Assembly (NCBI RefSeq): GCF_057098645.1
Contig: NZ_CM169472.1
DNA: 64,000 nucleotides
Strand: one strand, 5' to 3'
Made by a program: the position numbers. Shown here in pieces: positions 59,001 through 62,000 of the stretch (its first letter is position 1; the number at the start of each line of letters is the position of its first letter).

Positions 59001-62000
59001 AGTTAATTCCCGGAGTGACTGGCAGGATGCCAATCAATGATCGGAAGCATGCCAAATCGTGATCGATTGTGATGCCAAACTGTGATCGGAGATGGATGCC
59101 AAATCATGATCGATTCGAATGCCAAACTGCGATCGATTCAGATGCCATTTTGCACGTTAACCATGGTTTTCAGCTTCTGGATGTTTGCCCGTGCCCTGGC
59201 GTTGCTGGTGGGCACGTTATGCGGCGCGGTCTGTACCAGAGAAAAATCACGCCGGAACTGATAAACAGGCATCACGCAATCATATTCGTAACCTTCACGG
59301 CGGTAAGTTACGCACCGTCCCGCCACGCCCTTAATCATTACCGTGCCGCCGTACTGGTCGCGGTAAATATCACCGCGCGTAAATTTAGGGTGAGTGTTGC
59401 CACTGGCAGTTAAGCCAGAATATTTAAGTTTCATTATTTTTATTCTCCGGTGTGCTGTTCTTTATATCTGTCGTGCAATAGATCTATTTTTTGCAGTTCC
59501 ATTATTACAGGCTCAAGTAGCGTTATTAATGCCGTGGCAATTCTTGATTTTTGTTTGTCGCGTTCATTATCTCCAAGCGTGTCAAGCCATATGCGCAATA
59601 TTTCCAGCATGTTTTCACTGTGAGAAAGTGCAAGAAATGCGCGGTCTATTGTTTCAAGGTAAATATCACGCATATTAATCCCCGTCCGTCGTTTTTCTTA
59701 AAACAACTTCTGTCACGAAATCAGCATAGTTAGCGGCAATATCAAGAATATTTAGCCCTGTATCCCTGTGCTCATCAGTGCAAAGAAAGAAAAAAGCCAC
59801 CAGCATAATTTCAGATATTGACGAAAGCGCATCAGCCGCATCATCAGGAACGCCGGAAAATTCCTGTTTCAGGGAATTAAAACGATCATCACGCATAACC
59901 CCGTTACTTTATTCGTACCCCTTATAATGGGGTGTTAGCCAGCCAGACCCGGCATGATTACTGCCCCCAGTCGTCCATGATCCGGGGGGTGATGTCACCG
60001 GGTCTGGTGGGGCGCTGGTAACCGCTAATAGGGGTCAGGTCAGGCACTTTTGCCGGGACCGTCTGTAACGTGGATGCCGGTACCTGCTCCCCGTGGTTAT
60101 CTGGTTAACCCATATACAAGGGAGACAGAATGACCGAATCCAGCGATTACGAATCCGTCCAGGTCTTTATCGGCGTTGATGTCGGTAAAGATACGCATCA
60201 CGCTGTAGCCATTAATCGTTCAGGTAAACGCCTGTTCGATAAAGCATTACCCAACGACGAAAACAAACTCAGGTCGCTAATATCTGACCTGAAACAACAT
60301 GGTCAGATACTGCTGGTTGTTGATCAGCCAGCTACCATCGGTGCGTTACCTGTCGCCGTTGCCCGCTCAGAAGGAGTCCTTGTCGGATACCTCCCTGGAC
60401 TGGCCATGCGCCGCATAGCCGACTTACACGCCGGTGAAGCTAAAACTGATGCTCGTGACGCTGCCATCATTGCCGAAGCTGCCCGTACCCTGCCTCACGC
60501 GCTACGCACGCTGAAACTGGCTGACGAGCAAATCGCCGAACTCTCCATGCTCTGCGGCTTCGATGATGATCTTGCCGCACAGACAACGCAGGCCAGCAAC
60601 CGTATCCGCGGCCTTCTGACCCAGATACATCCGGCACTGGAGCGCGTTCTCGGTCCGAGACTTGATCACCCGGCGGTACTCGATCTTCTCCAGCGATATC
60701 CCTCACCAGAAAAACTCGCTTCGCTGGGTGAGAAGAAGCTGGCAGCCCAGCTCTGCAAACTTGCGCCTCGTCTGGGTAAACGCCTTGCAGCAGACATAGC
60801 TCAGGCACTGGCCGAACAAACCGTCGTCGTTCCCGGCACGAATGCCGCTGCCGTAGTACTGCCACGTCTGGCACTCCAGCTCATCACGCTGCGTAAGCAA
60901 AGAGACGAGGTGGTGCTTGAGGTAGAACAGCGAGTTCTTGCTCACCCTCTTTACCCGGTCCTGACCAGTATGCCCGGAGTCGGTGTCAGGACCGCAGCCA
61001 GACTCCTCACCGAGGTCGCCTGCCGCGCCTTCGCCTCTGCCGCACATCTCGCTGCTTATGCTGGCCTTGCGCCGGTAACTCGGCGATCCGGCTCGTCAAT
61101 ACGCGGTGAGCATCCCTCGCGACGGGGTAATAAAGCTCTCAAACGGGCGTTGTTCCTGTCGGCCTTCGCCGCGCTCAGGGATCCGCTCTCCAGGGCTTAC
61201 TACACCCGCAAAATGAGTCAGGGAAAACGACACAATCAGGCGCTTATCGCCCTGGCGAGACGACGCTGCGACGTTCTGTTCGCCATGATGCGCGACGGGA
61301 CTTTTTATACCCCGCAGGCGTCATAACATGCTTGACAACTTAATAGGGGCACCCCCCATTTTCACAATCAGCAATAAGAATATTTTTAGCGTCATTCAGC
61401 GACCGCGTGGCGGTGTATCGGATACATTCCAGGGCGAACTGTGTCCGGTCTTTCTGTTCTTCTCCCTGCGCAAGCTCTGCAGTGCATTCAATATCGATAA
61501 GCGCGTGCATCAGCGTAGTGAGCGCGGCGGCTGCTGCGTCCGGTGTGGTTTTATTGCACATGGCACACCTCCTGACGAATACGGGCGGCGAATACAGCAA
61601 CACAACCGGACGGGCAACGGCTACGCGCTTCGCGTTCCGTCCAGGCGGTTACGTGGATGATTTGAGATTCTCCGGCACTCAGTGCCAGAAAACGCCACAC
61701 AAAGGCCGTTTGTGTGTGTACAAGGTGTGGTATATGATTTACAGCAACCATAACGGCTCCTAGTTTACGTTGTTGGTTAGAAGCCCTGCGAGTGGTAACG
61801 ACACTTGCGGGGCTTTGTCTTTTCATCGATTACCTTGATAAAGGTGTCAGCCACTATATTAGTAACGGGTGTCAGCCACGTCAATAGTGTTTTTCCGTTT
61901 TCTTGTGTGTATACTGTCAGCCACCTAATAACGAGGAAATCAGATATGGCAACAAAAGCAGTTAATGCAAAATCCAAAAAGCTTGAGGCTCGAGTACCAC

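Follow-up and report, generated by a model that had tools for sequence, protein, structure and literature searches.

Capsid-forming satellites and the regulator RgdR

The prototype of the capsid-forming PICIs (cf-PICIs) is EcCIEDL933, a 15.4-kb element of strain EDL933 (bioRxiv 10.1101/2022.09.08.507074), and the element known as OI-51, CP-933C or Sakai Sp7 is this same island. In Sp7 the gene for ECs1581 lies directly upstream of, and overlaps, the primase gene ECs1582. ECs1581, also called RgdR, is a small basic regulator of O157:H7, whose binding to DNA is weak and non-specific according to the passages that describe it (PMC3378721). Those passages report that the protein raises LEE1 transcription without a need for Ler or GrlA, that it depresses motility, and that the RGD motif (R20) and K35 matter for its activity. 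They also report that deletion of ecs1581 or of OI-51 lowers type III secretion (T3S), adherence and the colonisation of sheep, that overexpression alters motility and Congo-red binding, and that variants of rgdR occur in strains without the LEE (Flockhart et al. 2012, PMC3378721). Since deletion of rgdR changes T3S in uninduced cells, its basal expression is independent of helper induction. In the PICI literature all analysed E. coli PICIs encode RgdR, and the protein is listed among the PICI 'accessory genes' (PMC6092414). RgdR has so far been treated as a virulence accessory gene, despite its constant place at the start of the replicase.

An early operon interrupted by two insertion sequences

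The window, by which is meant the whole 64,000-nucleotide stretch of DNA that was analysed, holds from about 46.4 kb to beyond its end at 64 kb an island that is, by its gene content, a capsid-forming PICI of the EcCIEDL933 type. Recognised within this island, which is of a type of about 15 kb, were int, alpA, a replicase with adjacent iterons and the island's own module of capsid, protease, portal, connector, HNH, TerS and TerL genes. With EcCIEDL933 and the Gram-negative PICIs (PMC6092414) it has in common int, alpA, an early operon of small ORFs, the replicase with its iterons, SSB and PerC, and a complete module of HK97-type capsid, portal and terminase genes; the left flank, adjoining phoQ-phoP-purB, looks the same as in Sakai Sp7 to judge by ORF sizes. 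It differs in that two insertion sequences (IS) break the early operon, in that its replicase is a RepA-type helicase, and in its small ORFs, which are ECs1578-1580 in Sp7 and orfZ, orfA and orfB here.

Relatives found by megablast carry int, an AlpA-type regulator, a 263-aa ORF, an Icd-like ORF, small ORFs, DUF4222, a RepA helicase, SSB and PerC, followed by major capsid, prohead protease, portal, connectors, HNH, TerS and TerL. The order int, alpA, icd, small ORFs, DUF4222, primase or RepA, SSB and PerC is common to CP075852, CP043478, CP024127 and Sakai Sp7, with PerC followed by a full packaging module in CP024127 and Sp7 and only by a protease/capsid fusion in CP075852 and CP043478. DNA identity to the annotated CP024127 island is 97-99.7% over positions 47017-56515 and 61559-64000 of the window and about 90% over the three small genes that lie between the IS elements. 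The operon itself has the order alpA, icd-like, orfZ, orfA, orfB, rgdR, replicase, and its features in the window are as follows.

54900-55093, no strand assigned: four copies of the iteron-like repeat CNCCTCACTT, directly downstream of repA
55092-56492, minus strand: repA, a RepA-family helicase (Pfam AAA_25), with ORF and ribosome-binding site intact
56516-59154, minus strand: IS21-family element with istA/istB, inside the 3' end of rgdR and 17-23 nt upstream of the repA ATG
59138-59434, minus strand: rgdR' (orfC), 98 aa, DUF4222/RgdR family
59440-59673, minus strand: orfB, 77 aa, acidic (pI 5.1), phrog_2196
59675-59896, minus strand: orfA, 73 aa, acidic (pI 4.2), phrog_24341
59903-61351, plus strand: IS110-family ISEc20-like element, antisense to the operon, with its transposase at 60130-61326
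61340-61561, minus strand: orfZ, phrog_5146, the natural upstream partner of orfA, with its last codons replaced by the IS110-family element
61551-61751, minus strand: icd-like small ORF of the same operon
62626-62814, minus strand: AlpA-family helix-turn-helix regulator at the operon start, the known activator of Gram-negative PICI induction

The iteron-like repeats downstream of repA are the probable replication origin of the satellite, in keeping with the position of ori in PMC6092414.

A preliminary description of this DNA had singled out three co-directional ORFs of 73, 77 and 98 aa at 59138-59896, and it was right in their coordinates, their sizes and their spacing, with 1 nt (59674) between orfA and orfB and 5 nt (59435-59439) between orfB and orfC. 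As all three lie on the minus strand, transcription runs from orfA through orfB to orfC, with the 73-aa ORF leading and the 98-aa ORF at the end. The proposal that they form an operon holds in part, for the genes do look co-transcribed, but instead of a free-standing trio they make up the promoter-distal section of a longer operon, which continues into the replicase. The isolated three-gene operon is an artefact, because two IS elements have inserted into this longer unit. A consensus scan for an internal promoter serving the three genes found none upstream of orfA, with the number of sites equal to the expectation from shuffled sequence, and positions 54000-64000 gave no Rfam match at E up to 0.1.

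Both IS elements are simple insertions without loss of island DNA, as seen from BLAST against intact relatives and inspection of the junctions, and a search of 5,426 complete E. coli genomes found neither junction. The IS21-family element is flanked by a 7-bp target duplication, CGTTAAC, at 56509-56515 and 59155-59161, and puts 2.6 kb between rgdR and repA. From the span of the element and its duplication it follows that residues 1-93 of OrfC are native and residues 94-98 IS-encoded. Thus, codons 1-93 (59156-59434) belong to the island, codon 94 straddles the IS junction, and residues 94-98 (VQNGI) together with the stop codon come from the IS21-family element and replace the native GFRGKK. 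The C-terminus of OrfC therefore reads ...MVNVQNGI and the full-length tail ending in RGKK is absent, which bears out the earlier suspicion that the end of the last ORF is encoded within the IS21-family terminus and fused to it. Native RgdR is 99 aa long and ends in RGKK in 24 of the 25 complete alleles recovered, the exception being a divergent allele of 104 aa. The IS-fused 98-aa form was not found in a collection of 15 billion proteins, where the exact sequences of OrfA and OrfB are those of common E. coli hypothetical proteins.

The IS110-family element, annotated as ISEc20-like in other records, starts 6 nt upstream of the orfA ATG in a poly-G/C tract at the orfZ/orfA junction. A possible preference of ISEc20 for C-runs is a further observation on this element. 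With the early operon interrupted twice, the mobility of the island is doubtful. The early-operon module in the window is probably disabled, and there may be read-through across the two IS elements.

Identity and conservation of the three small genes

By several sequence signatures the three ORFs are genuine genes and not chance ORFs. A Shine-Dalgarno-like sequence lies 5' of each start codon, PHROG profiles are matched at E=1e-41 by orfA (phrog_24341/2512), 1.5e-40 by orfB (phrog_2196) and 2e-30 by orfC (phrog_285), and all three are annotated as coding sequences in hundreds of RefSeq E. coli genomes. Pairwise dN/dS values of the three genes fall between 0.19 and 0.44, and orfA and orfB are under purifying selection. 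The label of orphan given to them previously does not hold, as all three belong to PHROG families and are present in 15-27% of complete E. coli genomes. Nor is it the case that none belongs to a recognisable family, since the third is the named regulator RgdR/DUF4222.

OrfC matches Pfam DUF4222 (PF13973) at E=2.5e-23 over residues 16-68, with the full model covered, and is 93-95% identical to the 99-aa alleles of intact islands and 76% identical to ECs1581/RgdR of O157 Sakai Sp7/OI-51. In the alignment with ECs1581, R20-G21-D22 and K35 are invariant, the positions being those given in the relevant passages of PMC3378721 and PMC10877973. On this resemblance orfC is rgdR, the gene of a known regulator. 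The likeness to the RgdR of Flockhart et al. 2012 thus takes in the DUF4222 domain, the overall identity with the RGD and K35 residues, and a position directly 5' of the replicase gene in the same kind of island. The window's allele differs in that it is 95% identical to the common WP_000770163 type, has 98 and not 99 residues with GFRGKK changed to VQNGI, and is followed by a replicase of the RepA type and not by a primase. The family as a whole is small, with 45 representatives at 50% identity, and most of it lacks the R of RGD, the consensus being PGD.

RgdR is basic (pI about 10), in contrast to the acidic OrfA and OrfB. Its AlphaFold2 model has a disordered N-terminus that holds the RGD, then five strands confidently predicted as a barrel (residues 23-68), and at the C-terminus a basic helix, so that as modelled the barrel appears Tudor/KOW-like with the basic helix behind it. 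This predicted barrel can be likened to the C-terminal domain of UvrD/PcrA, the RID of CarD/CdnL, the RID of Mfd and the KOW of NusG/Spt5, systems in which Tudor/KOW-like small beta-barrels dock on RNA polymerase or nucleic acids. Kid and VapX did not stand out among the matches, as dozens of unrelated small barrels matched at least as well. A sequence search for relatives of solved structure (phmmer and hmmsearch against the PDB) gave a best E of about 0.5, and against AFDB50 all of the best 50 matches listed were DUF4222 or 'prophage protein'. AFDB also contains a 564-aa E. coli protein whose N-terminus is 98% identical to RgdR and whose length fits an RgdR-RepA fusion.

OrfA matches the C-terminal half of the 154-aa phrog_2512 and orfZ its N-terminal half, and in other islands orfA is fused in frame to the upstream orfZ. 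The two were considered as tandem paralogues, an idea that was dropped as BLASTP gave no alignment between them and they are instead two halves of phrog_2512. A hypermutable poly-G tract that fuses or splits orfZ and orfA is a separate observation on this pair. OrfB carries a conserved WLxxLxDNERD motif and is 25% identical to Sakai ECs1580 (phrog_5796), with which it shares the motif WLxxLxxNERD and matches to both phrog_2196 and phrog_5796; on these grounds OrfB is a distant homologue of ECs1580. Its AlphaFold2 model is a confident two-helix hairpin, for which a fold search returned only generic and designed helical hairpins at E > 0.6. The GC content is 42% for orfA and 39% for orfB against about 53% for the island, and to judge from this and their distribution OrfA and OrfB are E. 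coli-lineage additions of lower GC.

Homologous DNA was found by blastn in the 5,426 complete E. coli genomes for rgdR in 1,442, for orfA in 972 and for orfB in 813, almost always on the chromosome. An OrfB profile recovered 80 IMG/VR loci, in which linkage was followed. All 77 informative loci have orfB followed by rgdR, always with a gap of 5 nt, and rgdR followed by the replicase (RepA in 45, primase in 32), with a 4-nt overlap in 76; orfA precedes orfB in 73 of 79. Upstream of orfA the 80 loci are mosaic, with Icd, phrog_1478, orfZ and phrog_340 in varying combinations, and intact islands read alpA, mosaic small ORFs, orfZ, orfA, orfB, rgdR and then primase or RepA. In intact relatives the rgdR stop overlaps the replicase start alike with a D5-type primase-helicase and with a RepA helicase. 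The region had been described as a variable one between the regulatory and replication modules. It does lie between alpA and the replicase and it is mosaic upstream of orfA, but the linkage from orfA to the replicase is nearly invariant, and in 77 of 77 loci from orfB onwards, the opposite of a slot for variable cargo.

A wider profile scan of one genome per species gave 11 loci, from Raoultella, Serratia, Enterobacter, Mangrovibacter, Pseudocitrobacter, Citrobacter, Escherichia sp., Pantoea, Lelliottia and Kluyvera. Wherever such a locus is complete, its primase or RepA gene starts in overlap with the DUF4222 stop, 10 of these loci being from other genera, and OrfA-like and OrfB-like genes are mostly absent from the loci of other genera. 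The coupling of rgdR to the replicase is in this sense invariant. A phage origin of the three genes was also considered and set aside, as tblastn against 50,697 phage records found no match to orfA or orfB and one weak match to RgdR, in an 8.6-kb record. From the linkage, the spread across genera and the near-absence from phage records, it follows that RgdR is a near-universal, satellite-specific gene set against the replicase. Among the small genes of enterobacterial PICIs it is the one most constantly present, always at the start of the replicase, which suggests a role in their life cycle.

Possible roles of the module

What, then, might these genes do for a satellite? The three are likely to be the small promoter-distal genes in the early operon of a cf-PICI of the EcCIEDL933 type, cut out by the two IS elements. 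In an intact island a helper phage would trigger AlpA and the early operon would be transcribed as a unit, so that OrfA, OrfB and RgdR would be made together with the replicase. RgdR could then be a general cofactor, associated with DNA or with RNA polymerase, by which the transcription of the induced island is tuned, with its effect on the LEE representing cross-talk, and OrfA and OrfB, as small, acidic, helical proteins, would most likely act through binding to other proteins, be it RgdR or factors of the host or the helper. In the window the ISEc20-like element would cut orfA off from its promoter and from orfZ, and the IS21-family element would swap the conserved tail of RgdR and uncouple repA. 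Set against this reading are the basal expression of rgdR in uninduced cells and the replication of plasmids by rep and ori alone, and also the low GC of orfA and orfB and their absence from most islands of other genera, which fit lineage-specific accessory genes. Overlaps of 4 nt are, moreover, common throughout these compact operons, so that translational coupling alone is a weak sign of functional partnership.

The current view of RgdR in the literature would make the three genes moron-like regulators of the host, acting on the LEE and T3S, on motility or on the surface to the benefit of the lysogen and not of the satellite cycle. We consider this possible though somewhat doubtful. The lower T3S, adherence and sheep colonisation of the ecs1581 and OI-51 deletions and the motility and Congo-red effects of overexpression, as given in the passages cited above (PMC3378721), speak in its favour, as do the listing of RgdR as a PICI accessory or virulence gene (PMC6092414) and the atypically low GC of orfA and orfB, but the same passages place RgdR variants in strains without the LEE (Flockhart et al., PMC3378721). 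The gene is moreover present in the 1,442 E. coli genomes and in Raoultella, Serratia, Enterobacter, Kluyvera and other genera, and the R of RGD gives way to a PGD consensus across the family. Its position at the replicase start is fixed, unlike that of typical morons, which lie at the ends of elements and have their own promoters. The preliminary description had instead taken the three genes for variable satellite cargo, a set concerned with phage interference, defence or toxin-antitoxin-like functions, which now seems highly improbable. The three proteins match no PADLOC family at E up to 1, no NCBIfam family and in Pfam only DUF4222, and thus bear no defence or toxin-antitoxin signature from these sources; the genes are almost without exception linked to the replicase, the third of them encodes a named regulator, and the passages of the RgdR induction study that were consulted make no mention of toxicity (PMC3378721). 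The homologues of RgdR are conserved regulatory genes of satellites, which is the very finding that the preliminary description had set against its cargo reading.

The gene of P4 Cnr lies just 5' of that for the alpha primase, and Cnr modulates the DNA binding of alpha. By analogy RgdR, possibly with OrfA and OrfB, might act on the satellite replicase, as a non-essential cofactor or as a regulator of copy number, a suggestion that we regard as unlikely. P4 has the same layout, namely vis, the cI/icd region, epsilon, orf151, ORF106 (which we take to be cnr) and alpha, so that the two early operons have in common an AlpA/Vis-like regulator, an Icd-like ORF, small ORFs and a small ORF directly before the primase. 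The resemblance is positional only, as OrfB is unlike epsilon and ORF151 in sequence and RgdR unlike Cnr; homology was tried with hhalign for OrfB against epsilon and ORF151 and for RgdR against Cnr, and was rejected at probabilities of no more than 0.1%. In favour of a tie to the replicase are the overlap between rgdR stop and replicase start that recurs in 76 of the 77 E. coli loci and in 10 loci elsewhere, across three replicase architectures, the 564-aa protein with the length of an RgdR-RepA fusion, and the basic, DNA-binding nature of RgdR in the passages that describe it (PMC3378721). The association of rgdR, however, persists with replicases of a different N-terminal domain (locus L006), so that no single partner domain is implied. 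The rep gene and ori sustain plasmid replication alone (PMC6092414), and RgdR is therefore not an essential replication factor, while the sole RgdR phenotypes measured in the passages of PMC3378721 concerned are transcriptional.

The placement of the three genes in the cf-PICI early operon can also be taken further, in a joint reading to which we give little credence, where orfZ/orfA-orfB-rgdR would form a satellite-specific core control module with poly-G phase variation and a landing site for ISEc20. Here phase variation of the poly-G tract (G7-G11) would yield either one fused protein of 154 aa or two separate ones, and translational coupling from the orfZ/orfA tract would determine how much OrfB, RgdR and replicase is made. 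RgdR, as a Tudor-like cofactor aimed at RNA polymerase or nucleoid proteins, would have the task of turning on the induced island, with activation of the EHEC LEE as a by-product. The C-run at orfZ/orfA would be a preferred landing site of ISEc20, leading to recurrent inactivation of the satellite.

Taken as the remains of an early operon, the locus is an IS-disrupted piece of a known cf-PICI family with a named gene, rgdR, and not a new defence or toxin locus, and it adds OrfA and OrfB to view as widespread, satellite-only proteins. The two IS insertions show a route by which an island can be immobilised, with its regulators possibly still supplied to the host.

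The homopolymeric tract between orfZ and orfA

The orfZ and orfA genes of the satellite early operon, which match the N-terminal and C-terminal halves of the 154-aa family phrog_2512, meet at a homopolymeric G tract that in the window is split by an ISEc20-like element of the IS110 family. The positions concerned are as follows.

Window 59899-59902 and 61352-61357: the native G tract, in two parts
Window 59903-61351: the ISEc20-like element
CP075852 island locus (L001) 9743-9750: the same G tract
Plasmid pCFSAN029787_01 (L097) 1700-3170: an unrelated copy of the ISEc20-like element

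When the tract was compared in L001 and 55-58 further loci its length was found to differ among islands, with G7 in 17 loci, G8 in 26, G9 in eight, G10 in three and G11 in one. The consequence for the reading frame is direct: with G7 or G10 orfZ and orfA are read as a single protein of ~154 aa, corresponding to phrog_2512, while with G8 they are separate and overlap by 8 nt. Tract length is also unequal within six of the ten groups of loci that share identical 200+200-nt flanks, and thus it changes faster than point substitutions accumulate. These differences could reflect either phase variation or homopolymer sequencing error.

Both in the window and on the plasmid, the ISEc20-like element lies within a run of C residues (..ACCCC/IS/CCCCCC..). 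These two insertion sites suggest that C-runs are targeted sequence-specifically, in which case the satellite's poly-G/C tract between orfZ and orfA would represent a natural target.

The replicase and its downstream repeats

Directly downstream of the replicase gene repA, at window 54900-55093, are at least four copies of an iteron-like repeat (CNCCTCACTT), a position just past the replicase gene that matches where origins have been described in Gram-negative PICIs. Comparison of the replicases at window 55092-56492, L001 7230-8984 and L004 (a further island locus) 18601-20733 revealed that, in these islands, replicases of the RepA type (AAA_25) and those of the D5-type primase-helicase class have in common an N-terminal domain of ~110 aa, conserved as MKxAPNxK...IIFAGxDAWxHAKxW and without a Pfam match. 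A Serratia island replicase has a different N-terminus, which can be aligned to that of P4 alpha with shared cysteine motifs, yet this island still retains a DUF4222 gene upstream.

Related islands and proteins matching RgdR

Two islands of ~10 kb, in CP075852 (L001 3338-13048) and CP043478 (L002 3617-13838), maintain the early operon order int, alpA, icd, orfA, orfB, rgdR and replicase. Instead of a complete packaging module, each has just one such gene, a "ClpP-like prohead protease/major capsid protein fusion", accompanied by two or three small ORFs. Portal and terminase are absent from both, and these islands may represent a reduced or distinct satellite type.

Judged by ORF sizes, the chromosomal flank left of the window island (40857-46359) appears to be mnmA-hflD-purB-phoP-phoQ, as in Sakai Sp7. 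The closest intact relative (CP024127), by contrast, is inserted in tqsA and has an integrase region that is 99% identical.

Two further proteins match RgdR, the DUF4222-family regulator. The first 98 residues of a 564-aa E. coli protein (AFDB A0A377D0E3) are 98% identical to RgdR, and a protein of this size would be expected if RgdR and RepA were joined through the overlapping stop/start. Such a fusion could be natural or a frameshift or assembly artefact. In a 797-aa protein from the representative library (P0272), five separate stretches match the RgdR query, suggesting a large protein with tandem DUF4222 barrels.
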